Shown in pieces: positions 8,903-55,410 of a stretch of 64,000 bases of DNA (positions are counted from its first letter, which is position 1; each line of letters starts with the position of its first letter). The stretch spans positions 863-64,862 of the forward strand of contig JAVBMC010000046.1 in the NCBI GenBank assembly GCA_031552845.1, read 5' to 3'. The notes beneath the pieces are model-generated. The model did no database searches. It was not told where the DNA came from and saw only the letters and a list, made by a program, of their open reading frames with translations. Position numbers and translations under genes: made by a program. This stretch comes from Kiritimatiellia bacterium. Lineage in GTDB: Bacteria > Verrucomicrobiota > Kiritimatiellia > RFP12 > DVOR01.

Positions 8903-8915
8903 AGGAGTAGTGAGT

Positions 8916-10613: not shown

Positions 10614-10649
10614 GGGTTGAGCGGGGAAAAGCTTCTAAAGGGGATAAGG

Positions 10650-20412: not shown

Positions 20413-20423
20413 TGGAGTCTATC

Positions 20424-24668: not shown

Positions 24669-27600
24669 AGTTTTTTTGGAAACTATTAATCGTTTGCTGT
24701 TACTTCGCTGTCACACTACAAGCTCAAGAAAGTGAGTCGCCGTCCGGTTGGTTAATTAGTGTGGCAGATAGCGAAATACCTCCTCTTAGTGATTGGCCTC
24801 AGGTATCGGTGCCTTCAAAACCTCCGCTATCCGTACGGAGCAAGGCAACGGCTGCTGCAAATCGTTTGATGGCTACGTCCCAACAGGCACCTGAGCGCGT
24901 TTTGCCGACTGTGCTTGATCTTGGCTTGCAGCAAACTTTGCCTGCATCGGATATGGCCTTAATTAAGGAATTGGCGCGTGGACTGGATTATGATTGGGAG
25001 AAGTGTTATTACTTTGTCCGTAATCATATTAATTATGTGCCGTGTGGTGGCATTATGCGAGGCCCGGAACGAACCCTTTTGGATAGAGAGGGTAATGATG
25101 CTGATCAAGCATTCTTATTACTGGCATTGTTGAGAGCTTCCGGTTATACGGCAACAATTCTACACGTGCCATTGACTCAGGTAAGCGGTCAACCGACCCA
25201 AGGATTCTGCGTGCCGATAGCCAATCAAAACGGGGAATTGGTTTATAATGCTGCCGATTGGTTGGGAGGAAAGAGCTTCAACTCATTGCAGGAGGCTGGT
25301 GACGGAGTGGCACAGTGTCTGCAGATCGCTAAACGATCGTTAAGAGGAATTACGGATACCGCCACTGGAATCAGAATGATTGTTACTGATCACTTTTGGG
25401 TTTCGTTGACTCTGGATGGCGAAACAAAATGGCTTGATCCATCCTTTAAACCCGTTCGTCGAACATCTGTCCGCTCAATTTTGGACGATATGGGATATCA
25501 GCGTAACTCGCTTCTACAATCAGCCAATGGCGTTGTGAATCCCAATTCCGTCAGTAACCTGACGTTCAATGGTATAAAAACTCAATTGGGTTTATGCGTC
25601 GATAATCTAAGAACGCTCTGGGCCGACACGAATATTAATGCTTCGGCCTATGTTGGTAAGGTTGAAATCGTCGAGCAAACTGACTCCGAGTACTTTCATG
25701 GTTCTGTTTTCGGCACCCCGTCCGATTTTCTGGCAAAATCCCAGACAGATAAAAATGGTTTTAGAGTACCGATGAAATTGAATGTCTCAATATCTGGGCC
25801 ATCGGCTAATTTATATTTGGACGAGGTCGGCCCCCGTCGTCTCTGGGTGAGTTATGTAAGTGGAAGCGGTTCTACAGGGTATAAGACGGCTCTCAAGTTA
25901 GACACCATCACATTGGCGGAGGCATCAGCCGCATCTACCGCAATCGACGAGACAATGACCCTTGAAGTTAATTATTTTTCGACCAAGCACTCTGCCAATT
26001 ATTCTTTTAAGCGTGCTTTGACGAGTGCTTATGCGATTGTTGTCGGATTTGGTGGAGATCATCGGGATGGTATGCGTGTGTGGACCGCCGAGCAATTGGC
26101 CAATCTACGCGTGACCGCGCCTGCGAGTGATATACAGTTGGTTGCGGCCTCTCTGCAAGTGGCAGGGCACCAATGGCTTGCGCAAACGGCAATGATGCGC
26201 TCTTTTCGAAATAAAGTTTTTAACTATAATCGGCAACAGTTTTACAATATAGGGGTTGCCGGACAAGCTAGTTCTCCTTATGTTGATGTGAGAAACTCTT
26301 ATAGTTACACACCGGATGATGTTCAAGATTTGGACGGTGGCATGCTGTTTTCGAGCGCATTGGAACATGCGGTGCTTGATCAACTCAATGGAACGAACCG
26401 TCCGGCCGTTTCAACCATCAAAGTGTTGGAGCTTGCAAATACTGCAGGAGTTCCGGTATATTTTGCGACGAGTGCAAACTATGCTACAATCAGGGGAAGT
26501 CTGCTGAATTATACCACAGATCAGCTTGCTTCCTTTGCGACAGCAGTTGGAGCTGGACGTAAACTATTAGTGCCAAGAGATGCACGCATCCGTTTGAAGG
26601 ATTGGACGGGGTATGGGTATATTGAGCAAGGCCCAGCATCGATCGGTAACCAAACTTATACTACCAGTATGGCAATTGGCGGTGGGTTTGCTGGCGGCTA
26701 TGCTGCTGTTGACAACTTTGTATTAGATCCTCCGCCTGCCGTACTTGATCATTCTATTTTACCGAATGCTGCAACGCCAGAAATGACCCAGGCCGATCCC
26801 GTCACCATGCCGGCAGGTGCCTACATTGATTCGAGTACAGATATTGCTGATATTGGAGCTGTTCCGGTAATATGGACGCGCCAGTATGATTCACGCAAAC
26901 GTTATGCGAATGGTCCGCTGGGACGAGGATGGATTCACAATTATGAGGCCTCTGTCACCCTCTCCAGCGACCCTGATGCGATTTTTGGCCATGCTTCTCT
27001 CGAGGCCGTCCTTCCGACGGTAGTGGCGATGGCGGCAGTGGAGGACATGCTTGCTAAGCAAAAGACTGCGTTGACATCTGGAGAGCAGGCCAAGTGCTGG
27101 ATGGTTGCGGCATTGACGGTGCAATGGTGGGTTAGCCGATTTGTCGATGCAACGGCTGTCGTTAATTTGGGCAATAAAACATTGTCTTTTCAAGCTAGGA
27201 CAACCGGCAAGCCGCAGGGCGAAGAAGCGGTTGTTTACGTGCCCTATCCCGGAGTGACAGCAACGCTGGTGAAAAAACCTCTGGAAAAGAGGCTTCACTT
27301 AATAGAACGTCTTGGGGCAACTTTTTGCTTTGACGAAACCAAGAGCAACAGATTGGCCGAAATTGTTCACTCCGCGGGGAGTCATACAGAGTTGAAGTAT
27401 GATACTTCTGGCAAACTTTCTATTATCACCAATAGTTCCTCTCGTACGGCGTTATCAGTAAAATGGAATACTGCTAATCGGATTGTCGGCGTGACGAATT
27501 GTTTTAAAGCGGGTGTTGGATATACGTATGATAGCAAGGGATGTTTGACACAGGCAAAAGACGCGCTCGGGCAGTCTTGGATATCGACTTACGATCCCGT

Positions 27601-40940: not shown

Positions 40941-41744
40941 ATGAAGAAGACTCTAATGTGGCGGTATCTGATAATAGGCGGATTTTGTTTGTTGGCTGTG
41001 GCCGCGAGTGGAGTGTGGCTCTGGTTGCAGCATTCAAAGTCTTTGCGCAATCCGCCAACGCCGTCGGTGCAGGGCGTAAATGGCGAACCTGCGGCCCCAA
41101 CACCTGGGGCGCGCAAATCACTCGCTGACCGCCGCAAGGGGAATAAACCGTCTGTCCAGCAGCAGCCAGCCGTCGGGACAGAAAAGAAGAAGCCTCAGCG
41201 GTTCATTATTGATGAGGTGACCTTAACACCGCAGGAGAAAATCATTCAAAGCCGTTTGCAGGACGCGCTGGATAATGAGGATTTTGCAGCAATTGCGGCG
41301 TTGGCGAAAGATCCGGTATTCGCAAAAAATGCGGAGTTGCGCCGTGAATTAATCGCGGCATTGAGCTGGTTTGGCGTACAGTCCATTCAGGAGTTGACCG
41401 CATTGCTGTTTGACGAAAATCAAGAGTTAGCCGGAGAAGCTTTCGATGCTTGGGTATCGGCTCTTGAAGAACTTGAGAATCCAGCTACCAAAATACAAAT
41501 GTTGGAAGCCGGCCTTAGGGCCCTTGTGGATCAAGACAGCATAGATTATGCGATGAGTTTGTACAATGGTTTAGATGATGTGCCAGTAGTGCAGTCATTG
41601 CTTAGGATTATTAATGGCGATAATGCAGAAGCCGCCGCCGCCGCGCGCGAGCAATATAGGCTTATCACAGGCGACGACTATGAGTCGGAGAAGGCAACCG
41701 CCCAATGGATTGCCGACAATACCGAGCCCGCAGAGGAAAAGTGA
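40941..41744 (+). CDS. Hypothetical membrane-anchored protein
   Basis: N-terminal TM (YLIIGGFCLLAVAASGVWLWL). Pro/Lys-rich linker and an alpha-helical C-terminal region. Confidence 0.5.
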   Translation: MKKTLMWRYLIIGGFCLLAVAASGVWLWLQHSKSLRNPPTPSVQGVNGEPAAPTPGARKSLADRRKGNKPSVQQQPAVGTEKKKPQRFIIDEVTLTPQEKIIQSRLQDALDNEDFAAIAALAKDPVFAKNAELRRELIAALSWFGVQSIQELTALLFDENQELAGEAFDAWVSALEELENPATKIQMLEAGLRALVDQDSIDYAMSLYNGLDDVPVVQSLLRIINGDNAEAAAAAREQYRLITGDDYESEKATAQWIADNTEPAEEK

Positions 41745-42197: not shown

Positions 42198-42908
42198 ATG
42201 GCTATTCGATATCACTTAGGGCCCGCGCTGCGGGCGGATCGGGCGGCGGCGGGCGAGATGATTGTGCATTCATCCACCGCACTGCGCATTCAGCAAGAGG
42301 AACTCGCCGACGAACTCGTCCGCCAAGGGACAACCGTGCGCCGCGCCGATGTGCTGGCCGTACTCGATAATCTCGGACTCGCGGTGGGGCACCTGTGCGC
42401 CCGCGGCATTGCGGTTTCAATTCCGAATCTCGGCACCATGACCCCGCGCGCTCGGGGCGTGGTCGATCGCAACGGCGCGTGGGTCCGCCCGCTGGAGGGG
42501 TACTTGACGCTACAAGCCGACCGCGGGCTGGAGGCTGTTTTCAATCAACACGCAAAGTTCCAAGAAGTCCCCCGCAAACCGGTACGCGCCATCATTCGGC
42601 GGATTTTCAACGTAACTGCCGCTCCGGGAGATGTCCGGCTCGTGCCGGGTGATGTGTTCGAAGTACAAGGCCGGCATTTACGGTTCAATGCCGCCGCGGC
42701 CGATGAAGGGATTTTTCTGAAACGCGCCGAGGGTTCAACTACGGAGGAGGTCAAGGTGATCGAGGTTTGGCCCCAGACCCCCTCGCGGGTACTCTTCCGC
42801 GTGCCGACCACAATCATGCCCGGGGACTGGTTATTAGAGGTGCGGGTCCGCCAAAAGGACTGTTCACGCGTAACCGTGTCCGAACCGCAAATTATTTTGA
42901 CCTGTTGA
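42198..42908 (+). CDS. HU-like DNA-binding protein with DUF4469-like C-terminal domain, copy 2
   Basis: MAIRYHL N-terminus typical of Bacteroidetes-type HU_2 family proteins. C-terminal NAAAADEGIFLKRAEG block parallels copy 1. RBS-like AGGAAATTAAAACC precedes the ATG. Confidence 0.55.
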   Translation: MAIRYHLGPALRADRAAAGEMIVHSSTALRIQQEELADELVRQGTTVRRADVLAVLDNLGLAVGHLCARGIAVSIPNLGTMTPRARGVVDRNGAWVRPLEGYLTLQADRGLEAVFNQHAKFQEVPRKPVRAIIRRIFNVTAAPGDVRLVPGDVFEVQGRHLRFNAAAADEGIFLKRAEGSTTEEVKVIEVWPQTPSRVLFRVPTTIMPGDWLLEVRVRQKDCSRVTVSEPQIILTC

Positions 42909-43799: not shown

Positions 43800-44600
43800 A
43801 TGAAGAAATTAATGGGATTCGCTGCGGCGATGGCACTCGTTGGCGGTGCGTTTGCAGATTGCACTCTGCCGACAGAGACGACCGATGTGGAGGCGCTTGT
43901 TTATGACTTTGCGGTCACGTTGAAGACCACGAAGGCAAAGCTCGTCACGTTGAAGGATACGCAGGTTCCTTGCGATTTGCCGATCGCGGGTGGAGCAATT
44001 GTTTATCGGGACAACGGGGCAACTCTGAAGTATCAGGGTTTCTATTGGACTTGTGATCCGTCTTGTGTTGATTCGCCTCAGTTTGATGTGCCGCCTTATA
44101 CTTTCGAGTATTGGAACACGACAGAGAAGGTGGTCTTGGCTAATGCGGTTAACGCTGACGTCAGCGCGACTGCTCCTACTTGGAGTGTTCTCAACATCAT
44201 TGGTTCGCCCAGCAAGATGAGCAAGGTCGAGGCTGCGTTTGATACTCTGACTTGGACGGATCTCGAACGTACGAGTGCTTCAGTAGCCAATGGTGCTGGT
44301 TTTGGCACATACGATAGCAAGTACAATCGTGTGAAGACAATCAGCGGTTACGTGGTTGCCACTATGGCACCTCCGTACTATCCGCACACTGTTGGCGATC
44401 TTGTTTGCCCGCCTGCAGTTGCGTTTACTCCTTGTTCCTATGACGAGAACGACAATCCGACGGTTGGTTATGGAACTTGGTCGCTTAAGTACAATGCGTC
44501 TGCTTCAAAGAAGCTCGCGAAGATGGGGCAAGTGGCTGGCGTTCCTGCGCTGATGCCGAGCTGGGCACGTGTACAACGTGTGCCGGTCGAACTTGACTAA
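43800..44600 (+). CDS. Secreted Cys-containing hypothetical protein
   Basis: ATG 43800, signal peptide MKKLMGFAAAMALVGGAFA. 266 aa with no recognisable domain. Confidence 0.55.
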   Translation: MKKLMGFAAAMALVGGAFADCTLPTETTDVEALVYDFAVTLKTTKAKLVTLKDTQVPCDLPIAGGAIVYRDNGATLKYQGFYWTCDPSCVDSPQFDVPPYTFEYWNTTEKVVLANAVNADVSATAPTWSVLNIIGSPSKMSKVEAAFDTLTWTDLERTSASVANGAGFGTYDSKYNRVKTISGYVVATMAPPYYPHTVGDLVCPPAVAFTPCSYDENDNPTVGYGTWSLKYNASASKKLAKMGQVAGVPALMPSWARVQRVPVELD

Positions 44601-44630
44601 TTATGTCAAGGCGTGTCATATAGACATGAA

Positions 44631-44668
44631 AGAGGAGTGGATAACTTCCGCTCCTCTTTTTATTTTAA
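44631..44668 (+). terminator. Rho-independent terminator
   Basis: AGAGGAGTGG-ATAACTT-CCGCTCCTCT followed by TTTTATTTTAAT. Confidence 0.8.
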
Positions 44669-44696: not shown

Positions 44697-45836
44697 ATGA
44701 GTATTTCACGGGTCATTCAGAAACCGCTAAAGCAGCTGGGAGTGTTTTTATGTTTTTGGGTGGCAGTCATTATCCACATTGGTTGCCGCGAAAAAGTTAC
44801 ATTGCCCGCGATTAATGATGAGGCGGTGACAGCCAGTGTTAAGCGTCAGTTGAATGATTTAACAGCGGATGACATAGTTGTTTCCGTCAATAATGTTCCA
44901 TTAACCAAGCATGTTTTTGACGAAAATATAGCGTTGTACAGGCGTTGCCTCCAGCTACAAAAACCAACAATAGCGGCGACTAAATTGGATCAGGCTGAGG
45001 CACGAAAAAAAACAACGTTGATATCGGAGTTCGTTGTGCGGCAACTATTTTTGCAAGAGGCAAAGAAGCTTAATCTTGTACCGGAACAAGCAGAGCGAGA
45101 GGCATTAGAGATGCAGCAGGTCTCTAAATTTCGAGGCAAGGTTAAAACATTTTCTGATTTGCTTGCTCAATTAGGTTCCCTAGGGGAAATTTTTAAACGT
45201 GAATTTGAGATTGATTTGCTGATGCAAGAACTTTATCAAAGCCAGTCCAATCAAGTGATAGTGACTGATGCAGAAATCGATCAATCGTTGTCTGCTTTGG
45301 CGGAGTATAATCAAATGGCGCAGGCAACGAATAAACAGGTAGTCGCTTTTGGGGCGCAGTTGTATGCACGGTTGCAGGCGGGGGCTGACTTTGCCGAGTT
45401 GGCGGATGAGTTCACAGAGGATGAAACTAAAGAAAGTGGGTATTGGGGGGAGTTCATCCGTGGGCAATTTGATGATGAACAAGTGGAGGCTGCGGCATTC
45501 ACGCTTCCAATAGGTGCCTATTCAAAGCCACTGGATACTGTCAATGGCCTTGTTATTGTAAAGGTGTTGGATCGTGTGGGGGGAGGGGCTGAAGAAACTC
45601 CTCCGGGGGCAATGTTGGGAGAGCAGGTAACTTTGGCGCGAATCTTGAGAAAAATGGCGGTTGTTTGGCCGCAACTTTCGCGGGATGAAATTCAAGATCA
45701 GTTAGTTGCCACAAAGCGAACGAAAATGCAGCACTCCTTGTATCAAAAATTACTAGGGCAGGCACGTATTGAGTACCCAAACGGCACGAATTTGTTTGAT
45801 TCTGCCAGTATTCTTCCTGTTCAGCCAAGGCACTAG
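44697..45836 (+). CDS. Peptidyl-prolyl cis-trans isomerase, PpiC/parvulin-type (SurA/PrsA-like periplasmic chaperone)
   Basis: N-terminal signal/anchor. SurA-N-like helical region. Parvulin domain ADFAELADEFTEDETKESGYWGEF..GAYSKPLDTVNGLVIVKV. Confidence 0.7.
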   Translation: MSISRVIQKPLKQLGVFLCFWVAVIIHIGCREKVTLPAINDEAVTASVKRQLNDLTADDIVVSVNNVPLTKHVFDENIALYRRCLQLQKPTIAATKLDQAEARKKTTLISEFVVRQLFLQEAKKLNLVPEQAEREALEMQQVSKFRGKVKTFSDLLAQLGSLGEIFKREFEIDLLMQELYQSQSNQVIVTDAEIDQSLSALAEYNQMAQATNKQVVAFGAQLYARLQAGADFAELADEFTEDETKESGYWGEFIRGQFDDEQVEAAAFTLPIGAYSKPLDTVNGLVIVKVLDRVGGGAEETPPGAMLGEQVTLARILRKMAVVWPQLSRDEIQDQLVATKRTKMQHSLYQKLLGQARIEYPNGTNLFDSASILPVQPRH

Positions 45837-45974: not shown

Positions 45975-48900
45975 ATGAGCCGTTTATCAAAGAAAGTAGC
46001 CTTTGGGTGTCTTGTTGCCGTTTGCATGATTTTGAACGCGAGGGCAGCCTACGAAAATCATGTAGTTACCTCTGACGGGGAAATTGAGCTGGGGGTCTGG
46101 AACACAAATTTGACAAAAGCCCGAACTTATGCGGAATCGCAGAATCTGCCGTTGGTTGCGGTATGGAGTGATACAAATTGCGGAATGTGTTCACATTTCG
46201 CCTCCAATTGTTTAGAGAGAGTTACTTTTAAATCGTGGCAGGCTACGAATGGATTAGTCATGGTTTATATTCATGAGCCGTTTAGGAGAATGACGCCCGA
46301 AATTACATGGATATTGGGATCCAACTCCAGCAGATCCCTCCCCCTAATTCGTTTTTATTGGAAAAAAGCGGACGGCACGACTTACAACCAATATACGAAT
46401 GGTCGGGCTTCGCGGTTTTTGAAATTTGTGCCCAAAGGCACAGCTAGGGATGATGAGTTTGCTGTAAGTTTTATTGGTGCAATTAACGCCGCATTTGCAG
46501 GCTATGAGCCGATGTTAACCGGTCCTGCAACAGATGCGTGGGATCCGGCGGATGATAGTGCCAGTGGTGCGACTAATGTGACGGTGTCGCTTGATTCACC
46601 GGTATGGACGTCAACGAAGCATTATTTGAATCAAGATGATACCAGCGATTGGTATAAGTTTGATGTCGATGCAGGTTCAACAAATTTATTGTGGGTGACG
46701 GGGTTGCAGACGAATAATGCTGTCACGAATCTAAACGTGTCGTTGTACCTAGAGGGCGCAACGGCTGGTGAGCCTTCAGGAACAGCCACGCACACAACGA
46801 ATTTGGTCAAGTTGCTTAATGTCGAAAATGCTTACAAGTACGAAAACACGAGTGGGTCGGCCTTGTGGGCCTGTGTGTCGCGCAAGGCAGGGACAAATGC
46901 AACGGTTTCGTATACGCTCAACATGAAGCAATATATGCCGTGCGCCTTTTCATTGAACACGAATGTGGTGAATGTAAAAGAAGGCAGCACATTTAAAGTA
47001 GTGGTCTCGCGTGAGGGTGACGATAAAGCCTTTGTGACAACCAATATGGTTAAGTTTGTGTTAGATGACGGCACTCCTGCTAGAGACTATGTCACGACCC
47101 CAGATACCACCGTAGTTTGGCAGCCTGCCGATAATGCCAAAACTGTGACAGTTGCTACGATCAGAAGCGATGGCAAATGGAATCCGGACCGCAATTTTAA
47201 TGTGGTCTTAACGTCTGATGAGGTTAGGCATGCGCCAATTACTCCGCATATGACGCAGACCGTGACGGTTGCAGAAATTACCGCCGCCAAGCGTGGTACA
47301 TTTGCGATAACTCAGGTGACAATGCCTGACAGAGTGCCTCTATATCAAGTACCTTATAGTGCCACATTAAAGCCTGTCGTATGGGAAGGTGAGCGCGTGC
47401 ACTTGAGTGTTGCACGTTCAGGAGGTGTTGATGATGATGCCATCGTTCGACTTTATTGGGCTGGAACCACGAATGAAATTGGTATAATTCAAGAAACGTG
47501 GACAAATAAGGAGAGCGTAGTCGAGAAGGTCTTGGAATTTACGGTGCCAACCGTGACTGGTGTGCAACCGCCAACGCAGGTGTCTGTTGACATTCGTGCT
47601 TGGAGCCCTGGCTTGGAGTCAACAAGTTTGGCAAATGCAAAGGCCTCGAATTTGTCATTGACCGTGAATGATGCCGGATATGTGAAGTCATTGGCAGATT
47701 TCATTAAAACGGATGCGATTAAGTGGACCACCGTTGCAACAACACCATGGTTTGTTTCGGTGGGCGGACTTACGGCTGCGGGTTCCAATGCGACGTTGAC
47801 GGCGTCGTTGACAGGACCGGGATTGCTATCGTTTGTTCCGTCCGGCGATGTTGATGCGCTATCAGTGCAAGTTGGCAAGGACACAGTAAACGCTTTGACG
47901 GTTGCAGACCATGCAAGTTCAAATGTAACAGTGGCTATCCCTTCAGGCAGGCAGGCGGTTACCTTACGCTATGGAGGGGCAGGAAACACAAACGTTTTCC
48001 TTAATGCAGTCGAGTTCACGCCGGCCAAGGCCGGGGTGACGGTGATTTCGCCGCGTAGTGGCGCGGTCGTGGCGGCGACGAATGATTTGCCGTTGGTGTG
48101 GGAAGCTTTGTCCGGGGCAGCGGTCACTTACACGGTAGCTGGTGGAACTTCGACGAGAGACATTGAGGAGGTTCAGGCTAATGCGGTTTCGCCGTATTCG
48201 ACAGATCTGTTCGCAGTCAAGGGAACACGTTATTGGCGGGTGGACTCGGTGGTAACCGATACGTTTGGCGGGGAGCTTTCGTTTGTCGGCACCGCGCAGA
48301 AGGTGACAGTTGTTGATGCGGATGGGCCGCAATTTGACCGCGAGGCGTTGGCGGTGGCGTATCCTAGTAATCCGAATGCGGACGGCTGGGATAATACCGG
48401 CATGATGCTCTCACAGGAGGATTTGTATGTCGGGTTGCTCACGAATATCCGTTTGCCGTTAGTTGATTCTGCCGACACAGTGAGGAGGCTCTCTGGGACG
48501 TTGCCCGCAGGATTGACACTCAAGAAGGTTGAGGATGAGTGGTATGTGACGGGGTATCCAACACGGGGGGGCGATTATACTGCGGTGTTGCAGGCGATGG
48601 CCGGTCGGACGGCGGGCGTGACGCTTTCACTGCAGATGCACGTGGAGGCTTTGCCCGCAGAGGTGGTGGGAACGTTTAATGGTTATCAGTCATTTGCGGA
48701 TGTTACGACGGATGAGCCGTTTGCCGTGCCACTGAAGGTGACAGTGTCGTCAGTCGGCAAAATTTCAGCTACGCTCACGGCGCAAGGGAAGAGGTATACG
48801 CTTAAGGCTAATGGGTTTGATTCCCGTCTTGAGGATGACCCGATCGCGGGCGTGAGGTTTGCGGTGTCCAATGGCTTGGCATTGACTACAGGCTCTGGCA

Positions 48901-50072
48901 GGACGCTTGTGAGCTATCCGATTATTCTGGAAACAGGTGCCGAAGTGGCGCCTGCCGGTGACTATGAGGGGGCGTGGAGCGGAACCTTGCATATTACAAA
49001 TGCAAACACGGTTGTCGATGCGCCATTTATTGTTGAAGCGGGATATGCGTTGCGTGATGGGTCAAAAGATAAAACCGCGACGATGCAAGTATTCCGTACG
49101 GATGGTTTTAATCTTTATAAGGGATATTACACCGCCGGGGTGCTGGGCGACGGCGTGACCTACGGTAATGGCTATTTAACGTTCACCGTCGGCACCAAGG
49201 GCTCAACGAAGATTGCCGGTAAGTTGGCAGATGGACAAGCAGTCTCCGCGAGCACGGTCCTGATGCCTTATGTGGGCGAGGATGGAGAAATTTATGGTTA
49301 CCTTCCGTTCGGTGTTGCTCCCAGCATTTATAAGGGAGGTGAATTCTTTGCCGAATCCTTATTCGCGTCTGATGGCACAGTTACTAATGGCGTGACCTCG
49401 TGGCGGAATCTAACCCCTGCAAACGGGAATTCAAACAATCTGCCTGTTGTTCTGATTGGTGCGCGTTATGCGCAGTTGACGAACCTTCGTCAAATTCTCG
49501 TGACAAATTCCGTACAAGTTTCGGAGTGGGTGAAGGTTTCCGATAATGATGGCCGTTTCAATGTGTTTCAAATCAACAGCAAGGGAACAGGTGTGCAGAC
49601 GCTGAATGCTGAAGAGGTTTATGTTGAAGGTGCTGATGAGTCTGTGAAATTAGTGCTTACACCCAAAACTGGAATTTATTCGGGTACATTTACTTCCGAT
49701 CGGACTAGAATATCGTTCTACGGTATTTTGGTGCCCAGTTTGTGGAGCGGTGCTGAACCGTTCTTTGGCGTTGGGTTTTATACATGGTTGCCTGTTGGCG
49801 CGAACCGAAAATCATCTGCTGCATTTGACTTATCATCATTTGATGATAGTGGGCTATCGTTCGTGGATACCAGTATTCAAAGCGGTTCTTCTAGTGCCAT
49901 CAGCAGTTTTGGCAGTGGTAGCATAATCCGTAGTGGCGGCGCGGTGCTTTCCGACCCTTCGCCTATTGGTGGTGCTGATCAGCAAGGTGAAGTTGGAGTG
50001 CCGCCATTTGACTTTTTGCCTCCTCCTTCTCCGCCTCCCGCGCCCCAGGTGCCACCACCGTTGACGTTTTGA
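45975..50072 (+). CDS. Giant secreted protein: N-terminal thioredoxin-like CxxC domain, PPC-like and Calx-beta/Ig-like repeats, Pro-rich C-terminus
   Basis: ATG 45975 after AGGAG, with a signal peptide. Thioredoxin-like block NLPLVAVWSDTNCGMCSHFASN..GLVMVYIHE. PPC-like DWYKFDVDAG. Calx-beta-like FKVVVSREGDDKAFVTT. Ends PPPSPPPAPQVPPPLTF. Confidence 0.7.
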   Translation: MSRLSKKVAFGCLVAVCMILNARAAYENHVVTSDGEIELGVWNTNLTKARTYAESQNLPLVAVWSDTNCGMCSHFASNCLERVTFKSWQATNGLVMVYIHEPFRRMTPEITWILGSNSSRSLPLIRFYWKKADGTTYNQYTNGRASRFLKFVPKGTARDDEFAVSFIGAINAAFAGYEPMLTGPATDAWDPADDSASGATNVTVSLDSPVWTSTKHYLNQDDTSDWYKFDVDAGSTNLLWVTGLQTNNAVTNLNVSLYLEGATAGEPSGTATHTTNLVKLLNVENAYKYENTSGSALWACVSRKAGTNATVSYTLNMKQYMPCAFSLNTNVVNVKEGSTFKVVVSREGDDKAFVTTNMVKFVLDDGTPARDYVTTPDTTVVWQPADNAKTVTVATIRSDGKWNPDRNFNVVLTSDEVRHAPITPHMTQTVTVAEITAAKRGTFAITQVTMPDRVPLYQVPYSATLKPVVWEGERVHLSVARSGGVDDDAIVRLYWAGTTNEIGIIQETWTNKESVVEKVLEFTVPTVTGVQPPTQVSVDIRAWSPGLESTSLANAKASNLSLTVNDAGYVKSLADFIKTDAIKWTTVATTPWFVSVGGLTAAGSNATLTASLTGPGLLSFVPSGDVDALSVQVGKDTVNALTVADHASSNVTVAIPSGRQAVTLRYGGAGNTNVFLNAVEFTPAKAGVTVISPRSGAVVAATNDLPLVWEALSGAAVTYTVAGGTSTRDIEEVQANAVSPYSTDLFAVKGTRYWRVDSVVTDTFGGELSFVGTAQKVTVVDADGPQFDREALAVAYPSNPNADGWDNTGMMLSQEDLYVGLLTNIRLPLVDSADTVRRLSGTLPAGLTLKKVEDEWYVTGYPTRGGDYTAVLQAMAGRTAGVTLSLQMHVEALPAEVVGTFNGYQSFADVTTDEPFAVPLKVTVSSVGKISATLTAQGKRYTLKANGFDSRLEDDPIAGVRFAVSNGLALTTGSGRTLVSYPIILETGAEVAPAGDYEGAWSGTLHITNANTVVDAPFIVEAGYALRDGSKDKTATMQVFRTDGFNLYKGYYTAGVLGDGVTYGNGYLTFTVGTKGSTKIAGKLADGQAVSASTVLMPYVGEDGEIYGYLPFGVAPSIYKGGEFFAESLFASDGTVTNGVTSWRNLTPANGNSNNLPVVLIGARYAQLTNLRQILVTNSVQVSEWVKVSDNDGRFNVFQINSKGTGVQTLNAEEVYVEGADESVKLVLTPKTGIYSGTFTSDRTRISFYGILVPSLWSGAEPFFGVGFYTWLPVGANRKSSAAFDLSSFDDSGLSFVDTSIQSGSSSAISSFGSGSIIRSGGAVLSDPSPIGGADQQGEVGVPPFDFLPPPSPPPAPQVPPPLTF

Positions 50073-50175
50073 AGACGAGTGCAGAGAACGGATTGCCGGG
50101 CAAATCGATGTCTTCCATAGAAGGGTCGATTTGTTTGGTCTAACGAGTAAAGATTTTGAGAAACGGAGTAAGTCC

Positions 50176-53100
50176 ATGATGAAAAATATGAGTCGCGTAG
50201 TTAAGGTAGCGGCCTTGGTAGTAATCAGCCAGTTGGGCGTCTGGCGTGCGTCGGCAGATGACGTAGCGTTGCCAGTGGTAATATCGGGTGAACCGGTCAT
50301 GGGGCAGTGGTATGGCTATTCAACACCAAGTAATGGCGTCGTAGGCTCTTTCTCAAACGTACTTCAACTGGCAAAGATGAGCCATGTGCCGGTTTTGGTG
50401 CTATGGAGCAATACCGGTTGCAATATCTGTCGGAATTTTGAGCAAGATACATTGAATACTTCTGCCATCCAAGATTGGATGGCAACACGCAATGTTGCTT
50501 TTTTGTATTATAAAGGCAACCTTGTTAAAAACACTGACACTGCGGCTCCTGATTGTCAAATGGCATTTGAGTTTACTCGAAAAGCTGGTGCATCCTTCCC
50601 GATGTATAGATTTATTTGGTATAAATCTGATGGGACGGTTGTTGATAGTGGTGCCGGGGGGACGTTTGCAGAGTATACGCCTGCACAATTTACCAACCGT
50701 ATGGAAAAGCTACTGGCAGGATATGATAACCAAGGCTCTTTGAACCCTTACCGTGGCGGTGCGTTTGAGTGTGGTGATGATACAAATCCACTGGCGCGTC
50801 TGGAGGCGGAGCCGTCTACCGAGTGGGTGGAGGTGCCGTTGCTTCGCAAAATTGTAACGATGGCGTATACGAACGAGTTGGTGGCGACTTTTCCGAATGG
50901 AGCGGCGGTGACGAATCGGGTGGAGTGGGAGGTTGGTCAGACGAATGCTCATGTGAAGTTCACCGGTATTGATGCACAGTATCAAGAGGGTGCAAAGGTT
51001 GAGCTCGTCTTGCGGGGTGTCGAAGAGGATGAAGTTTGGACGAATGCAATTACCTATGTGGCAGCACCTGATAATTCAACGCAGAATCCGTGGTGGATTG
51101 GTGAGAAGACTGTTGATGATTTGCCTTTCGGGCAGTGGACGATGGATTTGGATGTAGCGACGAATAAAGTGGCTGCAACTGAGGATTCTGCCTATACGTT
51201 GGTGTTGTTCACCGGTGCGTTGTGGTGTCCGTGGTGCAATGGTTTCGACAAGGGCGTTTGGGAGAAGGATGAATTTAAGGATTTCGTGCGAACGAATAAC
51301 ATTGCCTTGGTGGAGATTGAGGCGACCCGCCGTGTGGAATCAAATGCTGTGACTGCACCGACGTTGATGCGGCATGAGATTGACGCAGCCCGCACCGGCA
51401 AGAGCGGCAGCAGTTATCTGTCGCGCAAAATGATCACCATTCCTCAAGCCGAGGATGTGTTGGAGCGTACGCGCGTTTTGGGATATCAAACATGGAAGAC
51501 CCCGTCATCAGTGCGTACTGGATATCCGACTGTGTTGCTGCTGCGCAAGGATGGAACAATTGCCGGGCGCATGTCGTATTCGGCGACAAGTGATTATGAG
51601 TTTGATCTTGAGGCGAACTTGCAGCGTCTGCGTGAGATGTTGACGCTGGTGGATGATCCGGAGGAAGAGGCGAACAATGACTTGGCGACAACCCGTGCTG
51701 AGTTGAGTGTTGGTGCGGTCACGAACGGCACCTTGCAGGCATCCGACACTACGGATATCTTTAAGCTGACCGGCGTGCGCGGCGGTTCTTGTGCCGTGAG
51801 CGTCAGCGGGCCTGAGTCGGCGAATGTGACGCTGTCGATTCAGAAGGTGACGGCGGCAGGAACGCAGATCTTGAGTCGGGTGTCCGGCGACTGGTCGACG
51901 AATGTGTTGACTGTCGCGGCTGATGGCGTGGATGGTGAGAATTGCTTTGTCGTATTGCAGGGTGCCTCGTCATCGTTTGTTTCGCTGGGCAATACCGCTT
52001 GGACGGTGAAGAGTTATACGCTGACGGTGGATCCGGTTCTCGTGCCGCAGGAAACCGATTCCTTTGCGACCTTCCCGGCAGGAACATCTGTTGGCCTGCA
52101 GATTGTTGAGAATCAAATCTATCGTTTGGAGCCGAGTGCAGGTTTGACGGCTAATATCGCCGAGCTGGAACAGGATGCGGACGATACGAGTTTGTTCCAT
52201 GCATTGACCACCGGAACGACTACGCTGGGTTTGGCCGCGGGCGGGCGTTTGGAATGGCGTGTTTGGAAACCCGGCACGCTCGGTTTTAATTTAGCATCGC
52301 TAACAGTCTCCGAAACAACTGGAACGGTTCATATAGCGGTCAGCCGTACGAATGGTACGTCGGGAGCATGTTCGGTTCAAGTTTCTGTTGATCCGTTGCA
52401 GACGACGGCTGTTGCGGGTGAACGTTTCACCTCGCCTGCCGGCACGGTGTTGACGTGGAACGATGGCGAAACCGGAGTGAAGACGTTCGACTTTATCGTG
52501 CTGGATGATTTGATCTATACAGGCACCGAGATGGTTGGGCTGATGCTGAGCGTGACAGCAGGACACGCCGCGCTTGATGCGGCAAAGACCAACCTGTTGA
52601 TTTCCATCACCGAGAATGATAAGGCGATTCCCGGGCGCTTGGCGTTTACAGGTTCAACACCTGCGCTGGCGAAGATTACCGCGCCGTCTGTCGTCGCACG
52701 TGAGTCCACCACGGTGGAGCTGGAAGTCTCCCGTGTCGAAGGCGCTTATGGCGTGGCCGCTGCGGCATTGACAACGACAGCCGGCGTGTTGAACACTAAC
52801 CGCTTGGAGTGGAGCAGCAACGACCGCCAGCCGACCAAGAGGTTTTCTATTACGCTGCCTGCCTTGGCAGATTTGACGAAGAACACTGTGATAGTCAAGC
52901 TGGTGCCGGAGGGCATTAGGGCTGTCACAGGCAAGGGCGATGTGGATATCGTGGTTGTGGCGGCTGATGCCCCGGCGTTTGCTGTGGACACCATCACCGA
53001 AGCCATTCCGCAGTATGTCAACTTCTCGCGCGAAATAACCGTCAGCGCATCTCCTGACGCGTCTGTCACGATTACGAAGCTGAGCGGTGCGTTGCCTTCC

Positions 53101-54549
53101 GGTATCACTGCCAAATATGACAAGACGCTTGGAGCGGTGGTGTTGGCCGGCGTGCCGAGCAAGGCGGGACAATATGAGGCCGTCTACCAAGTCAAGCAGG
53201 TGCTGAACCGCGTCACAACGGTTGGCTATACGCTGCACATCAATCTGAACGTGCTGACGCTAGATACCCTGAACGCCAACACAGCCATCAAGCGGATTAT
53301 TCAAACTTCGCCGGTGTTGGAAGATGTGATGACGGTCGATGCGAACGATGTTACCAACTTCACCCAGCGTGTCCGGGGCGTGCTGACCATGACGCTGTCG
53401 CCCAAGGGCAAACTCTCGGCCAAGTATATCAATGCGCAGCAGACGGTTTCGTTCTCCGGTTCGGCATGGTCGGCCTTTGAGGAAGCCTCAAGCAACGTCA
53501 CGGCCGAGGTTCTGTCGAAGAATGGTTATTCGCTGGCCGTCCGCTTACAAGAGAGCGGTGTGGTCGATGCCATGATTGCCGATCCGAACGTGACAGATGA
53601 AAATGGCCACCCCAAGCAATTGTCGGTTGTCGTCTCTGACGCGGTTTGGAGCAAGACCAATCTTGCCTCCCGTTATGCAGGGTATTACACCATCAGCCTT
53701 GGCCAGAACGGTCAGCTGGAGGATGGCAATCCCGATACGGTTGATTGCCCGGTTTCCGGGTCGGGTTATTTGACGCTGACATTGTCATCTACAGGCGAGA
53801 AGACCGGTAAGATGTCGTACGCAGGCTGCTTGCCGGATGGTAAGAAAATCAGCGGCTCGTCGGTGCTGATGCCGGGCGCATCTGATGAAGACGATGCTTG
53901 GCTGCCGATCTTTGTCAAGTCAAGCGGACACGTTGTCTCGGCACTTTTGCGTGTGCGTGCCGACGGTGCGGAAACCTACAGCATTGATCCCTGGGTAGTT
54001 CACGCCGTTGAGGATGTACACACCTTGTGGGCGTATGCTGACACCCGCAATGCGCGTGCCTTCACGCTCAGCTTTGATGTCTTCGGCGGCTACTACAGCT
54101 CGGCAATCGATTTGCTCGAAGCCTATGAAGTCTACGAAAGCGCAGGCCCTCTGCAAGTCCGCGTATTGGGTGATTCACTCGCAGGCAGTGCGGTTTACGG
54201 TCCCGTGCAACCCTTGCCGGCTCCGTTGAACTTGTCGGTCACAAACACAGCCATTAAACTTGTTTCGGGCCAGGACAACCCCCTGCGGTTGAGCTTCTCA
54301 TTGACCCGTAAGACAGGCCTCTTCAAGGGTTCCTTCCGAGTGGCATTTGCGGACAAGACCTTGTCCGCCAGCTATGCGGGCGTCCTCTTGCCCGGTTGGA
54401 CGGATTGCGGCTGCGGTGACGGCGTTGATGTCCCGGAGAAGCCGATGGGGCTGGGTGCCTTCTGGTTCACCGACAAGGCGCTCAATGCGGCAGACAAACA
54501 AATCTCTGTTCTCCGTGGTGCTGCGGTTGACCTTGAGAAGGTGCAATAA
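50176..54549 (+). CDS. Giant secreted paralog with two thioredoxin-like CxxC domains followed by Ig/Calx-like repeats
   Basis: ATG 50176 after GGAG, with a signal peptide. Trx-like 1: HVPVLVLWSNTGCNICRNFEQD..NVAFLYYKG. Trx-like 2: YTLVLFTGALWCPWCNGFDKGVWEKDEFKDFVRTNNIALVEIEA. Shares an ...YRFIWYKSDGT... block with the upstream gene. Confidence 0.7.
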   Translation: MMKNMSRVVKVAALVVISQLGVWRASADDVALPVVISGEPVMGQWYGYSTPSNGVVGSFSNVLQLAKMSHVPVLVLWSNTGCNICRNFEQDTLNTSAIQDWMATRNVAFLYYKGNLVKNTDTAAPDCQMAFEFTRKAGASFPMYRFIWYKSDGTVVDSGAGGTFAEYTPAQFTNRMEKLLAGYDNQGSLNPYRGGAFECGDDTNPLARLEAEPSTEWVEVPLLRKIVTMAYTNELVATFPNGAAVTNRVEWEVGQTNAHVKFTGIDAQYQEGAKVELVLRGVEEDEVWTNAITYVAAPDNSTQNPWWIGEKTVDDLPFGQWTMDLDVATNKVAATEDSAYTLVLFTGALWCPWCNGFDKGVWEKDEFKDFVRTNNIALVEIEATRRVESNAVTAPTLMRHEIDAARTGKSGSSYLSRKMITIPQAEDVLERTRVLGYQTWKTPSSVRTGYPTVLLLRKDGTIAGRMSYSATSDYEFDLEANLQRLREMLTLVDDPEEEANNDLATTRAELSVGAVTNGTLQASDTTDIFKLTGVRGGSCAVSVSGPESANVTLSIQKVTAAGTQILSRVSGDWSTNVLTVAADGVDGENCFVVLQGASSSFVSLGNTAWTVKSYTLTVDPVLVPQETDSFATFPAGTSVGLQIVENQIYRLEPSAGLTANIAELEQDADDTSLFHALTTGTTTLGLAAGGRLEWRVWKPGTLGFNLASLTVSETTGTVHIAVSRTNGTSGACSVQVSVDPLQTTAVAGERFTSPAGTVLTWNDGETGVKTFDFIVLDDLIYTGTEMVGLMLSVTAGHAALDAAKTNLLISITENDKAIPGRLAFTGSTPALAKITAPSVVARESTTVELEVSRVEGAYGVAAAALTTTAGVLNTNRLEWSSNDRQPTKRFSITLPALADLTKNTVIVKLVPEGIRAVTGKGDVDIVVVAADAPAFAVDTITEAIPQYVNFSREITVSASPDASVTITKLSGALPSGITAKYDKTLGAVVLAGVPSKAGQYEAVYQVKQVLNRVTTVGYTLHINLNVLTLDTLNANTAIKRIIQTSPVLEDVMTVDANDVTNFTQRVRGVLTMTLSPKGKLSAKYINAQQTVSFSGSAWSAFEEASSNVTAEVLSKNGYSLAVRLQESGVVDAMIADPNVTDENGHPKQLSVVVSDAVWSKTNLASRYAGYYTISLGQNGQLEDGNPDTVDCPVSGSGYLTLTLSSTGEKTGKMSYAGCLPDGKKISGSSVLMPGASDEDDAWLPIFVKSSGHVVSALLRVRADGAETYSIDPWVVHAVEDVHTLWAYADTRNARAFTLSFDVFGGYYSSAIDLLEAYEVYESAGPLQVRVLGDSLAGSAVYGPVQPLPAPLNLSVTNTAIKLVSGQDNPLRLSFSLTRKTGLFKGSFRVAFADKTLSASYAGVLLPGWTDCGCGDGVDVPEKPMGLGAFWFTDKALNAADKQISVLRGAAVDLEKVQ

Positions 54550-54628: not shown

Positions 54629-55408
54629 TTAACGGTTACCGCCGCGCCCACCCGGGGGCGGACCACCGCGCCCGCCGCCCATCACGGAGCGTAAGTCGGT
54701 GTTGTCGTAAATGGTCTTGATGGTTTCTGCAAAATCCCCTTTATTCTGGCCGATTGCTGATGCATAGTCCGCCAGCAGGTATTGGCGTTCATTGCGGTAG
54801 ACCTCTTCGGCTTCACGCACGGTTTGACGGACAGCCTCGCGATCCACTTCTTCACCGGCGTCGCGTGCAGCCTGGAAAGCTTTGAACTGATCGTTGACAG
54901 CCAGCAATTTCTCGTAGTTCACCTTATGCTCCGGCGTCATCTTAGCTACATCAAATGAATCGTAGAATTCGACAACCGCTTCAGCGCGGGCTTTTTGACG
55001 TTCGACCCATTCGTTACGCCGTTTCTCCATCTCAGCGTAACGCTCGGGGTCTTCACGCTTGATGCGTTCTAACTCTTCGCGCCAGCCTTCTGGTCCACGG
55101 GGACGCCGATCCTGCGGTTGTTCTGTCTCGGCGACTTCCACTGTATCGGTGATGGTTGTGGCGGCTTCGGCGATTTCGCCAGCAAAGGTTTTGAGCTGCT
55201 GCTCCAGTCCGATAATCTTTGCCTTGAGCGCTAGGATATCATCGCTGGGCAGGCGTGTCGGTGTCGCAGACACTGACGGGGCTGCTTGCGCCGCTTGTTT
55301 TCGCAGGGCGCGGCACTCACGCAGATTATTCATACTGCTGAGCGAGGTGAATACTAGTGCAACAGCCAGCCCACCAACAGCAATCTGGTATTTTCGTTCA
55401 GTCGTCAT
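54629..55408 (-). CDS. Hypothetical membrane-anchored coiled-coil protein with Gly/Arg/Pro-rich C-terminus
   Basis: Start at ATG 55408 (MTTERKYQIAVGGLAVALVF), 2 nt after the purL stop; the track start at 55462 would overlap purL. C-terminus GGGRGGPPPGGRGGNR. Confidence 0.55.
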   Translation of the reverse strand: MTTERKYQIAVGGLAVALVFTSLSSMNNLRECRALRKQAAQAAPSVSATPTRLPSDDILALKAKIIGLEQQLKTFAGEIAEAATTITDTVEVAETEQPQDRRPRGPEGWREELERIKREDPERYAEMEKRRNEWVERQKARAEAVVEFYDSFDVAKMTPEHKVNYEKLLAVNDQFKAFQAARDAGEEVDREAVRQTVREAEEVYRNERQYLLADYASAIGQNKGDFAETIKTIYDNTDLRSVMGGGRGGPPPGGRGGNR

Positions 55409-55410
55409 AA

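Follow-up and report, generated by a model that had tools for sequence, protein, structure and literature searches.

Giant exported proteins with thioredoxin-type heads encoded in a conserved Kiritimatiellia operon

What function thioredoxin-type active sites may serve in giant exported proteins that also carry a long Ig-like stalk is the question raised by two intact tandem open reading frames of an uncultured gut-type Kiritimatiellia bacterium. They lie in a stretch of 64,000 nucleotides (the window), on whose forward (+) strand all of the features described here are found. The first, protA (45975-50072; ATG at 45975, stop ending at 50072), encodes a predicted secreted protein of 1365 aa of the single-thioredoxin (single-Trx) type, and the second, protB (50176-54549; ATG at 50176, stop ending at 54549), one of 1457 aa that belongs to a two-Trx family; an earlier note on this DNA had given the same length for the first and 1458 aa for the second. 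A Shine-Dalgarno-like AGGAG/GGAG stands ~10 nt 5' of both start codons. Signal peptides, read by eye from the sequence, are MSRLSKKVAFGCLVAVCMILNARA in protA, with cleavage before A, and MMKNMSRVVKVAALVVISQLGVWRASA in protB, with cleavage before D, and by these both proteins are predicted to be exported. The operon that contains them is conserved and previously undescribed.

The three N-terminal CxxC motifs that the earlier note had placed in thioredoxin folds are all present: CGMC in protA (aa 69-72; 46179-46190), at the active-site position of a Trx1-type domain, and CNIC (aa 82-85; 50419-50430) and CPWC (aa 351-354; 51226-51237) in the Trx1 and Trx2 domains of protB. Given their Cys content, protA would be expected to contain 0.04 and protB 0.12 CxxC motifs by chance. 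In a family alignment of 86 sequences, comprising protB and 85 homologues of 25-38% identity, 83-85 sequences have Cys in the motif columns (83-84 for CNIC, 85 for CPWC); little or no variation is found at C82/C85, C351/C354, a further pair C1411/C1413, and the cis-Pro residues P142 and P451. The motifs are thus kept in orthologues, a point on which the note had made its claim depend. Members of the protB family are giants of ~1300-1900 aa confined to Kiritimatiellia-type genomes, mostly rumen/gut metagenome-assembled genomes (MAGs).

The fold around these motifs is best seen in protB, for which structure prediction of the N-terminal region, as the note had proposed, returned a thioredoxin fold with a match to DsbH. 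The AlphaFold2 model of aa 1-520 (pLDDT 88.4, pTM 0.77) contains Trx1 (aa 43-182; 50302-50721), a Calx-beta-like beta-sandwich (aa 205-296; 50788-51063), and Trx2 (aa 318-495; 51127-51660), the last DsbH-like and carrying a ~65-aa insertion (aa 383-450). In protB each CxxC comes after a beta strand and caps the N-terminus of helix alpha1, and beta3 is preceded by a conserved Pro (P142 at 50599-50601 in Trx1; P451 at 51526-51528 in Trx2), and the topology of Trx1 runs E73-79 / H83-93 / E108-114 / H125-135 / E143-149 / E155-159 / H169-179. Pfam Thioredoxin_7 scores 49.2 bits against the whole protein, with its best stretch at aa 331-388 in Trx2, and 27.5 bits against Trx1 by itself. Foldseek matches the head model to DsbH (2ju5) and Thermus thioredoxin (2lst), and the beta-sandwich, whose strands span aa 209-294, to the CBD1/CBD2 Calx-beta domains; R224 and W251 in the sandwich region are invariant in the family. 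In PDB profile searches Trx2 matches DsbH 2ju5 at E 3.6e-8, and Trx1 matches AGR3, DsbA, and PDI.

In protA the corresponding domain (aa 38-178; 46086-46508) scores 16 bits against Thioredoxin_7, under the cutoff. It matches the protB N-terminus at E 3e-12 (BLASTP), has the invariant G/W/P/C/C/P/W columns of the family, with a putative cis-Pro in SLP (P123; 46341-46343), and likewise finds AGR3, DsbA, and PDI by profile; the Trx1 and Trx2 profiles match each other at 97.7% probability (hhalign). The domain is by homology a predicted thioredoxin fold, so that the earlier assignment holds at all three motifs, in protB by Pfam, AlphaFold2, and Foldseek and in protA through this relationship. As a whole, protA is a divergent paralogue of protB that has kept Trx1 and lacks both Trx2 and the C-terminal Cys pair. 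A word-indexed search gave only three weak matches to it, and a true orthologue is present in one further locus (L062; 31% identity over 1190 aa, E 4e-102). The single-Trx giants are protA, an 887-aa protein of L002, P0089, and L062_g1, all without Trx2 and the C-terminal pair; across the giants these two features co-occur. The single-Trx nature of protA had escaped the earlier note.

A conserved CxxC in a thioredoxin-like domain need not be catalytic, as metal- or cluster-binding domains of this kind exist (Sco and Trx-like ferredoxins). The giants might accordingly be purely structural or adhesive envelope proteins with degenerate Trx-like modules, in which the Cys pairs bind metal (Zn, Fe-S, or Cu) or form permanent disulfides of structural function, a reading that we consider improbable. 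Consistent with it, CxC and CxxC are common metal ligands, and the dipeptides inside the Trx1 motif are very variable across the family. Nevertheless, the full catalytic layout is kept, with CxxC capping alpha1 and the cis-Pro in place, no conserved His or extra Cys ligands occur near the motifs among the invariant columns, the nearest relatives such as DsbH, DsbA, and PDI are active oxidoreductases (AGR3, another of the profile matches, is without CxxC at the aligned positions), and three separate vicinal pairs over ~1400 aa are better explained by a relay.

Among solved structures, Trx2 is nearest in sequence profile to DsbH of Chlamydia pneumoniae (PDB 2ju5; NCBIfam NF043050), which also gives the top-ranking Trx-type match in Foldseek (TMt 0.61); both are Thioredoxin_7-type, envelope-exported, and have their motif in a WCxxC context. 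DsbH is, however, a single domain of ~150 aa with the motif CMWC, whereas Trx2 has its ~65-aa insertion, the family motif CPxC in the form CP[DHYW]C, and a second Trx domain beside it within a protein of 1457 aa. Orthology to DsbH was considered and rejected (27 bits vs the 190-bit equivalog cutoff). With PDI, protB shares a pair of catalytic Trx domains that flank a non-catalytic spacer in a single exported chain; the Trx1 motif is CxHC (PDI/DsbA-like) in about half of the family, CGHC being the commonest form (18 of 86), the PDB profile matches to PDI are weak, and the operon pairs the giant with a PPIase, both activities being used in oxidative folding. The PDI spacer, by contrast, consists of Trx-like b/b' domains rather than a Calx-beta-like beta-sandwich, and protB is bacterial and extended by ~950 aa of Ig-like and beta-module sequence, with CNIC/CPWC as its motifs and CGMC in protA. 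The spread of three separate Cys pairs over three domains of one protein, among them one of Thioredoxin_7 type and one that is Ig-like, also recalls the DsbD/ScsB relays, and DsbH has been described as similar to DsbD-gamma (PMC5193440). In protB, unlike these relays, the beta-sandwich is without conserved Cys and there is no DsbD_TM match (Pfam) or other membrane-embedded domain, and thus no evident link to cytoplasmic reducing power.

Beyond the head, a Calx-beta domain (PF03160) is above the Pfam threshold in protB only (aa 699-806; 52270-52593; 35.2 bits vs a cutoff of 27), so that the Calx-beta/Ig-like repeats proposed in the note hold in part; of its PPC-like repeats, protA gives a sub-threshold match (13.9 bits vs 25.9, E 0.11) and protB no PPC match. 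The Pro-rich tail proposed for protA is present (aa 1338-1365; 49986-50069), its C-terminus reading ...PPFDFLPPPSPPPAPQVPPPLTF. Relatives of the giants contain He_PIG, Flg_new, and PKD domains. Both proteins share a C-terminal all-beta module of ~450 aa, in protB at aa 1023-1457 (53242-54546), where the model of aa 951-1457 has pLDDT 90.9 and pTM 0.88, and in protA at 48612-49844; the module has no significant Foldseek match in PDB or BFVD and is found in 507 representative proteins at E <= 1e-3. The protA copy matches protB aa 925-1406 (E 5e-10, BLASTP) and the second giants of other loci, and in the alignment its Cys-pair loop is deleted. In protB this loop carries the third conserved pair, CGC (aa 1411-1413; 54406-54414; Cys in 85 of 86 sequences), which alternates between CxC and CxxC in the family, is usually CGC, and is vicinal in every case, and therefore fits a redox or metal dithiol rather than a structural long-range disulfide. 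Neither the third pair nor the shared module had been remarked on before. In Erv2p and QSOX, the latter a multi-domain extracellular Trx-containing disulfide catalyst, a flexible near-C-terminal Cys-Gly-Cys or CxxC shuttles electrons between the substrate-facing site and the catalytic CxxC; by this likeness a shuttle role for the CGC may be conjectured, although the giants are without an Erv/FAD domain or other terminal oxidase module.

The genes upstream of protA suggest where a substrate might be found. A gene at 43800-44600 encodes a small secreted Cys-rich protein of 266 aa with a conserved signal peptide (MKKLM...GAFA), six conserved Cys, and no Pfam or PDB match. Directly 3' of it lies a GC-rich hairpin of 14 bp with a T run after it (44628-44660), a candidate terminator/attenuator or 3' mRNA stabiliser. 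Of 77 loci, 72 have a hairpin at this position, with medians of 14 bp for the stem and -5.4 for z, as against 22/68 and 24/59 at control positions. A strong hairpin in this place is characteristic of genes for highly expressed major subunits, as in pilin and S-layer operons, and the small protein is apparently abundant, a candidate structural protein and candidate substrate. Next comes a PrsA/SurA-like parvulin PPIase of 379 aa (44697-45836; Pfam Rotamase 47 bits; SurA_N_2 20.6 bits, under the 28.5-bit cutoff), syntenic in related loci and probably a lipoprotein, judging from the lipobox HIGC at aa 27-30, whose Cys is kept in 61 of 64 homologues.

In many loci a homologue of the small protein lies directly 5' of the genes for the PPIase and the Trx giant. 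The usual order of small Cys-rich protein, lipoprotein PPIase, Trx giant, and second giant is found in 26 of the 45 loci having enough upstream sequence, and in the reverse test, seeded independently on the small protein, a Trx-head gene lies downstream in 24 of 26 loci, which show the order too. The second giants share the ~450-aa C-terminal beta module with the Trx giants; they have no conserved Cys pair, and so are unlikely substrates. Farther upstream, a membrane-anchored helical (HEAT-like) protein of 267 aa (40941-41744) recurs as a neighbour in some of the loci; it matches L002 and L003 at E 1e-21 (tblastn), and its counterpart genes in L001 and L002 have weak HEAT_2 matches.

The reading we prefer, with about even confidence, is that the giants are scaffold-mounted PDI/DsbH-like thiol-disulfide oxidoreductases or isomerases that serve the operon's own Cys-rich protein. 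The protB family would be Sec-exported envelope proteins with a rigid Trx1/beta-sandwich/Trx2 head bearing two redox-active CxxC, and protA would present Trx1 alone on a similar Ig-like stalk and C-terminal module. Together with the co-encoded PPIase, the giants would fold, isomerise, or control the disulfides of the six-Cys small protein, or possibly of an assembly formed by that protein with the giants, with the C-terminal CGC serving Trx2 as a partner dithiol or internal shuttle. The ORFs, motifs, Trx folds, six conserved Cys, co-occurrence of Trx2 with the C-terminal pair, operon synteny, hairpin after the small gene, and PPIase lipobox are established by the analysis; what we infer is redox activity, the substrate, whether electrons flow as in an oxidase/isomerase or as in a DsbH-like reductase, and the cellular location. 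Dedicated folding factors are familiar from MdbA of Actinomyces/Corynebacterium pilins, the foldase lipoprotein PrsA, and the surface Trx lipoproteins Etrx1/2, where secreted structural proteins that contain Cys are likewise folded by oxidoreductases of the Trx fold and/or a parvulin lipoprotein. These are small (about 15-30 kDa), membrane-anchored, and separately encoded, whereas here the Trx domains are joined to a giant stalk, in a protein whose gene shares an operon with that of the putative substrate.

Several observations count against this reading. Of the loci with enough flanking sequence, about 40% did not show the small-protein and PPIase genes directly upstream at BLAST sensitivity, and in L067 and L068 small genes stand in tandem without a Trx giant in the vicinity. 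Neither CGMC of protA nor CNIC of protB has the His that is usual at oxidising active sites. In the six loci whose neighbouring genes have Pfam annotation, none within +/-10 kb is annotated as a donor or acceptor of electrons (DsbD/CcdA/ScsB, DsbB/VKOR), nor was one found among the scanned window ORFs. Finally, a folding catalyst gives no reason for ~1000 aa of Ig-like stalk plus a 450-aa module.

As an alternative, the giants might be surface-exposed, adhesin-like oxidoreductases exchanging disulfides with host mucins or with dietary or other microbes' proteins, for example to open disulfide-cross-linked glycoproteins for degradation or to tether cells covalently via mixed disulfides. The extracellular-type domains (Calx-beta in protB; He_PIG, Flg_new, and PKD in relatives), a long Ig-like stalk that would hold the head away from the cell, the host-associated habitat, and, in several loci, adjoining surface-polysaccharide genes (Wzy_C, glycosyltransferases, Bac_transf) are consistent with this alternative. 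It is nonetheless rather unlikely. No anchor or outer-membrane translocation signal was found, the C-terminal aromatic residue is absent, and the C-terminal module has no outer-membrane barrel match (Foldseek); a surface reductase would, moreover, need a supply of reductant, and none is encoded nearby. Nor does an external substrate predict tight linkage to a Cys-rich protein and a lipoprotein PPIase, and the operon-encoded six-Cys protein suggests itself as a more economical substrate than host or dietary proteins.

Habitat poses a further complication for the preferred reading, as rumen and gut are strongly reducing and stable extracytoplasmic disulfides are unusual there. Chlamydiae, members of the same PVC superphylum, offer a comparison in its favour. 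DsbH is described as a reducing periplasmic oxidoreductase in Chlamydia (PMC5193440), and the Chlamydia envelope is disulfide-cross-linked under redox control (PMC4217174, PMC6752827). This precedent, the three dithiol pairs in one polypeptide, and the relevance of oxygen exposure as a signal to presumed strict anaerobes also fit a role in redox sensing or regulated assembly, in which the Trx domains would respond to oxygen or to the ambient redox state by changing the conformation or cross-linking of a surface layer, for example protectively upon oxygen exposure, rather than catalyze folding. Such a role overlaps the preferred explanation, from which sequence cannot separate it; the giants are without a regulatory or signalling domain and the operon without a regulator, and we regard it as very improbable. 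On the preferred explanation, that the giants act on the disulfides of the co-encoded Cys-rich protein, the operon would equip the cell envelope with disulfide-handling machinery of its own.

Outside the cytoplasm, thioredoxin-fold (Trx) oxidoreductases are as a rule small enzymes that stand alone. In the present case, a scaffold of about 1500 residues includes two such domains together with a third dithiol, and this scaffold is encoded together with a lipoprotein PPIase and a Cys-rich, apparently highly expressed protein. The two giant open reading frames reported for the region, protA (45975-50072) and protB (50176-54549), are both present and intact on the forward strand. The reported length of 1365 aa is correct for protA, whereas protB read from its ATG encodes 1457 aa, one fewer than the 1458 given. 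Each gene has a Shine-Dalgarno-like sequence on its 5' side, and a Sec signal peptide is plausible at the N terminus of both products. An AFGC sequence near the start of protA (aa 9-12) was rejected as a lipoprotein signal, as charged residues stand just before it and the hydrophobic core runs past the Cys. PEP-CTERM-type sorting was likewise rejected, neither C terminus having a PEP motif with a hydrophobic helix and a basic tail. The C terminus of protA is indeed Pro-rich, as described, and that of protB reads DLEKVQ. The other domains proposed for the scaffolds fared less uniformly. Calx-beta (Pfam PF03160) is matched by aa 699-806 of protB, at 35.2 bits against a 27-bit threshold, but finds no match in protA. 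The PPC-like repeats could not be upheld: PPC (PF04151) reaches 13.9 bits in protA (E 0.11), under its threshold of 25.9 bits, and is absent from protB both in a whole-protein scan at E <= 1 and in a scan of aa 499-698 alone.

The CxxC motifs are where they were said to be, with CGMC at aa 69-72 of protA, and CNIC (Trx1, aa 82-85) and CPWC (Trx2, aa 351-354) in protB; from Cys content alone, the number expected by chance is 0.04 in protA and 0.12 in protB. For protB, Pfam, an AlphaFold2 model, and Foldseek agree on the thioredoxin fold claimed around them. The whole protein scores 49.2 bits against Thioredoxin_7 (PF13899, gathering threshold 27 bits), with two matching stretches, and Trx1 taken alone is borderline at 27.5 bits. 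The model, which covers aa 1-520 with 79 homologues as input (pLDDT 88.4, pTM 0.77), contains two canonical cores of β-α-β-α-β-β-α order, each with its CxxC at the N terminus of α1. In Trx1, strand 73-79 leads to C82/C85 at the N-terminal end of helix 83-93, and strand 143-149 comes after P142; the equivalent elements of Trx2 are strand 340-346, helix 352-362 with C351/C354 at its beginning, and P451 before strand 452-456. A β-sandwich (aa 209-294) lies between the two cores, and Trx2 has a partly helical insertion of about 65 aa between β2 and the cis-Pro strand β3. For the Trx parts, Foldseek searches of the PDB give DsbH (2ju5, with a TMt of 0.61) and a thioredoxin from Thermus (2lst, with 0.64), and for the sandwich they give Calx-beta CBD domains. 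In profile searches of the PDB, Trx2 finds DsbH at E 3.6e-8, while a Trx1 profile that includes protA finds AGR3 (E 1.2e-4) and, more weakly, DsbA, PDI, DsbH, and TXNDC12. When the profile of Trx1 is aligned to that of Trx2, the probability is 97.7% (hhalign), so both are duplicates of one Thioredoxin_7/DsbH-like module.

Conservation across the family adds to this picture. There are 85 homologues of protB, at 25-38% identity, and the alignment of 86 sequences shows little or no variation at C82/C85, C351/C354, P142, and P451. The earlier note had staked its reading on conservation of the CxxC motifs in orthologues, and both motifs of protB are kept. The prolines P142 and P451 are invariant at the cis-Pro position before β3, and protA P123 aligns with the invariant Pro column; by position, these residues mark the conserved cis-Pro loop. 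The dipeptides within the motifs are more variable. About half of the Trx1 motifs are CxHC, the commonest form being CGHC (18 of 86), and Trx2 is represented mainly by CPDC (46), CPHC (11), CPYC (10), and CPWC (9). A third pair, C1411/C1413, was missed in the earlier note. It is Cys in 85 of the 86 sequences, where CGC accounts for 44, other CxC forms for about 13, and CxxC for about 26; as the two residues are vicinal in every case, it points to a redox or metal dithiol. No covariation pattern links the dipeptide of Trx2 to the spacing within this C-terminal pair. Searched exhaustively by HMMER with the last 457 aa of protB, 1.84 billion proteins gave 507 cluster representatives at E <= 1e-3, of which 352 are at E <= 1e-10. 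The match is C-terminal in nearly all of the full-length proteins listed, and 102 of 110 new full-length matches combine at least two CxxC motifs in the first 700 aa with the C-terminal Cys pair. A non-catalytic role for these cysteines, in metal binding or structure, is disfavored by the complete catalytic layout and by the active relatives.

For protA, the claimed thioredoxin fold has homology on its side, but the Pfam score does not reach the threshold (Thioredoxin_7: whole protein, 12 bits; domain alone, 16 bits, E 0.013). Its N terminus matches that of protB by BLASTP (E 3e-12), and none of the columns that are invariant in Trx1 (G, W, P, C, C, P, W) is lost. Further support for homology comes from the Trx1 profile that includes protA, with its AGR3 match (E 1.2e-4) and its 97.7% probability against Trx2. 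At the Trx2 columns protA has M/A and at the columns of the C-terminal pair V/V, with the Cys-pair loop deleted. Trx2 and the C-terminal pair are also both missing from an 887-aa protein of the related locus L002, from the single-Trx homologue P0089, and from the protA orthologue of L062; the two features therefore come together or not at all. The L062 orthologue (31% identity over 1190 aa, E 4e-102) rules out the status of orphan that a word-indexed search had suggested for protA. L062 is a freshwater-hypolimnion contig on which this orthologue, with a single CGYC, lies at 8095-11973. The next giant of that contig (13500-15686) has just a Trx2-type domain (CPHC) at its start; Trx1 and Trx2 are thus on separate polypeptides there. 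The 90% identity cluster that contains protA is represented by a 38-aa Gossypium "hypothetical protein," evidently a clustering artefact. GC content around protA is 0.45-0.50, somewhat below that around protB, a dip too weak to argue for recent transfer of the region.

The ~450-aa all-β C-terminal module is not confined to giants with Trx domains. It is found under heads that consist of two Trx domains, one Trx domain, Peptidase_C14, or PPC-like domains, and thus appears to be a common platform. Its recurrence under such different heads suggests a docking or assembly role rather than catalysis. One giant with an N-terminal Peptidase_C14 (caspase-like) domain and the C-terminal β module lies at 15066-19085 of L002. 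The best PDB match of the module in Foldseek has E 1.8e-3, with TM <= 0.3, and no outer-membrane barrel is among the matches. An outer-membrane β-barrel anchor of autotransporter or usher type was rejected, there being no barrel match and no terminal aromatic residue. In the AlphaFold2 model, the Cys-pair loop sits, with moderate confidence, between the last strands.

The protB heads can be compared with several known disulfide systems. DsbH is a single domain of about 150-170 aa; protB scores 27.1 bits against the DsbH equivalog NF043050, where 190 are required, and its domain lies within a 1457-aa protein, which makes it DsbH-like rather than DsbH. In PDI, the catalytic a domains flank Trx-like b/b' domains, whereas the spacer of protB is a Calx-beta-like β-sandwich. 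DsbA has a helical insertion, CPHC, and a DsbB/VKOR partner; Trx2 has the partly helical insertion of about 65 aa, its motif is CPHC in 11 of 86 sequences, it resembles DsbA in sequence at a marginal level (E 0.09), and neither DsbD/CcdA nor DsbB/VKOR is annotated within 10 kb on either side in six annotated loci. DsbD/ScsB proteins have a central transmembrane domain with a Cys pair, while protB has no Pfam match to DsbD_TM and its modeled parts are soluble α/β and all-β, unlike that membrane domain. The CxHC motifs of Trx1 resemble those of PDI and DsbA, both oxidizing, and Trx2 resembles DsbH, which is described as a reducing periplasmic oxidoreductase not reported up to then outside chlamydiae (PMC5193440).

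The genomic setting of the giants is an ordinary chromosome, with nusA-infB, ilvD, and purL close by. A scan of 185,579 species-representative genomes yielded 53 loci, nearly all in MAGs labeled Kiritimatiellia/Kiritimatiellae, "Verrucomicrobia UBA," or "Lentisphaerae" and mostly from rumen or gut; Kiritimatiellae is also the named source of one protB homologue. The neighborhood is conserved, usually in the order of a secreted protein of ~230-270 aa, a PrsA/SurA-like parvulin, the two-Trx giant, and a second giant, after which genes for a Wzy_C protein and for polysaccharides often come next. The window has the small Cys-rich protein (43800-44600), the PPIase (44697-45836), protA, and protB, in this order. 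Where the sequence extends more than 3.5 kb upstream (45 loci), the small gene and the PPIase are directly upstream in 26. In the reverse test, a metagenome scan seeded with the small protein and counting loci with at least 3.5 kb downstream, a Trx-head gene and a PPIase follow on the same strand within 6 kb in 24 of 26. The sole exceptions are L067 (10001-13276) and L068 (8910-12185), each with two tandem copies of the small gene, where neither a Trx giant nor a PPIase was detected within 10 kb. Second giants (1200-2200 aa) have the C-terminal module and lack a Trx domain and a conserved Cys pair; the absence of the pair led to their rejection as substrates.

Six Cys are conserved in the small protein, as is, to a striking degree, its signal peptide (MKKLMIAAA..GAFA); Pfam and the PDB contain no relative of it. 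A lipobox was rejected as a general feature, as many members have D or E at -1. Directly 3' of its stop codon, at 44628-44660, stands a GC-rich, 14-bp hairpin with a T run. Such a hairpin, usually followed by a T run, is found after the small gene in 72 of 77 distinct loci (median uninterrupted stem 14 bp, median z -5.4), against 22 of 68 and 24 of 59 behind the PPIase or the giants, positions that served as controls and have z near 0. Its position is kept while its sequence varies among loci. An attenuator or 3' stabilizer after the gene is the arrangement expected for a highly expressed major subunit, as in pilin and S-layer operons, and the hairpin would fit such a role. Among PPIase homologues, 61 of 64 have the lipobox L[AG]GC and are therefore lipoprotein foldases; the orthologues of L006 and L007 have SurA_N domains only, with no Rotamase match.

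Just downstream of protB and convergent with it, the reverse-strand gene at 54629-55462 weakly matches the LTXXQ motif (22.6 bits, cutoff 24.3) of the Spy/CpxP-type periplasmic chaperone family; no such protein is among the Pfam-annotated neighbors of the loci looked up by protein. Paralogues of HU-HIG/DUF4469 type (HU-like DNA-binding plus Ig-like) lie at 16625-17638 and 42198-42908, and one of the two is some 1 kb 5' of the small gene. The lower-GC stretch (~0.48) at 21510-30754 is a polymorphic-toxin-like locus. Its 1052-aa protein combines 10 bacterial TSP3 repeats with a Binary_toxB domain (anthrax PA Ca-binding); next comes an RHS-repeat protein of 2029 aa (DUF6531, RHS_repeat), and upstream (19426-21479) are genes for two proteins with LamG domains. 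The genes at 4184-7513 and 8910-10613 specify large proteins whose PATR (passenger-associated transport repeat), LamG, and DUF2341 domains are characteristic of surface proteins in the PVC group, and a DUF4838/CBM_4_9 protein is encoded at 10617-13826.

The observation in the earlier note thus stands, and its interpretation has support in part. The most economical reading is that the giants would be stalk-mounted thiol-disulfide oxidoreductases or isomerases, whose activity, substrate, electron direction, and location we infer. Together with the lipoprotein PPIase, they would handle the Cys-rich and probably abundant protein encoded in their own operon, and the CGC would be a partner or shuttle dithiol for Trx2. 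Action of surface-located giants on external substrates, host or dietary, as first proposed, would be a less probable alternative and leaves the operon unexplained. Redox sensing by the Trx domains is inseparable by sequence from the oxidoreductase or isomerase role.

Chlamydiae belong to the same PVC superphylum as these bacteria. Their envelope is described as disulfide-cross-linked in two reports (PMC4217174, PMC6752827). A more far-reaching proposal, which we consider rather unlikely, is that the operon of these host-associated Kiritimatiellia builds a new disulfide-dependent envelope structure. It would correspond, in free-living PVC bacteria, to the cysteine-rich outer-membrane complex of chlamydiae with its DsbH system; in it, the abundant six-Cys protein would be cross-linked or uncross-linked by stalk-mounted DsbH/PDI-like heads with a CGC shuttle of their own, and the ~450-aa module would be a new fold docking two-Trx, one-Trx, caspase-like peptidase, or PPC-like heads.

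The fold and its chemistry are already known. Neither the architecture, in which a ~1500-aa scaffold carries two DsbH/PDI-like domains plus one more dithiol, nor the operon, nor the C-terminal module is described in the searchable literature, where queries on Kiritimatiellae thioredoxin, RFP12, or a thioredoxin-like domain with Calx-beta returned no account of the protB family. If the proposed role is correct, it would show envelope disulfide handling in strictly anaerobic, uncultured gut and rumen Kiritimatiellia, extend the reach of DsbH-like domains beyond chlamydiae, and add a new C-terminal β module without a fold match in the PDB or BFVD, while offering a concrete and testable candidate for a major envelope component in a clade known from metagenomes only.
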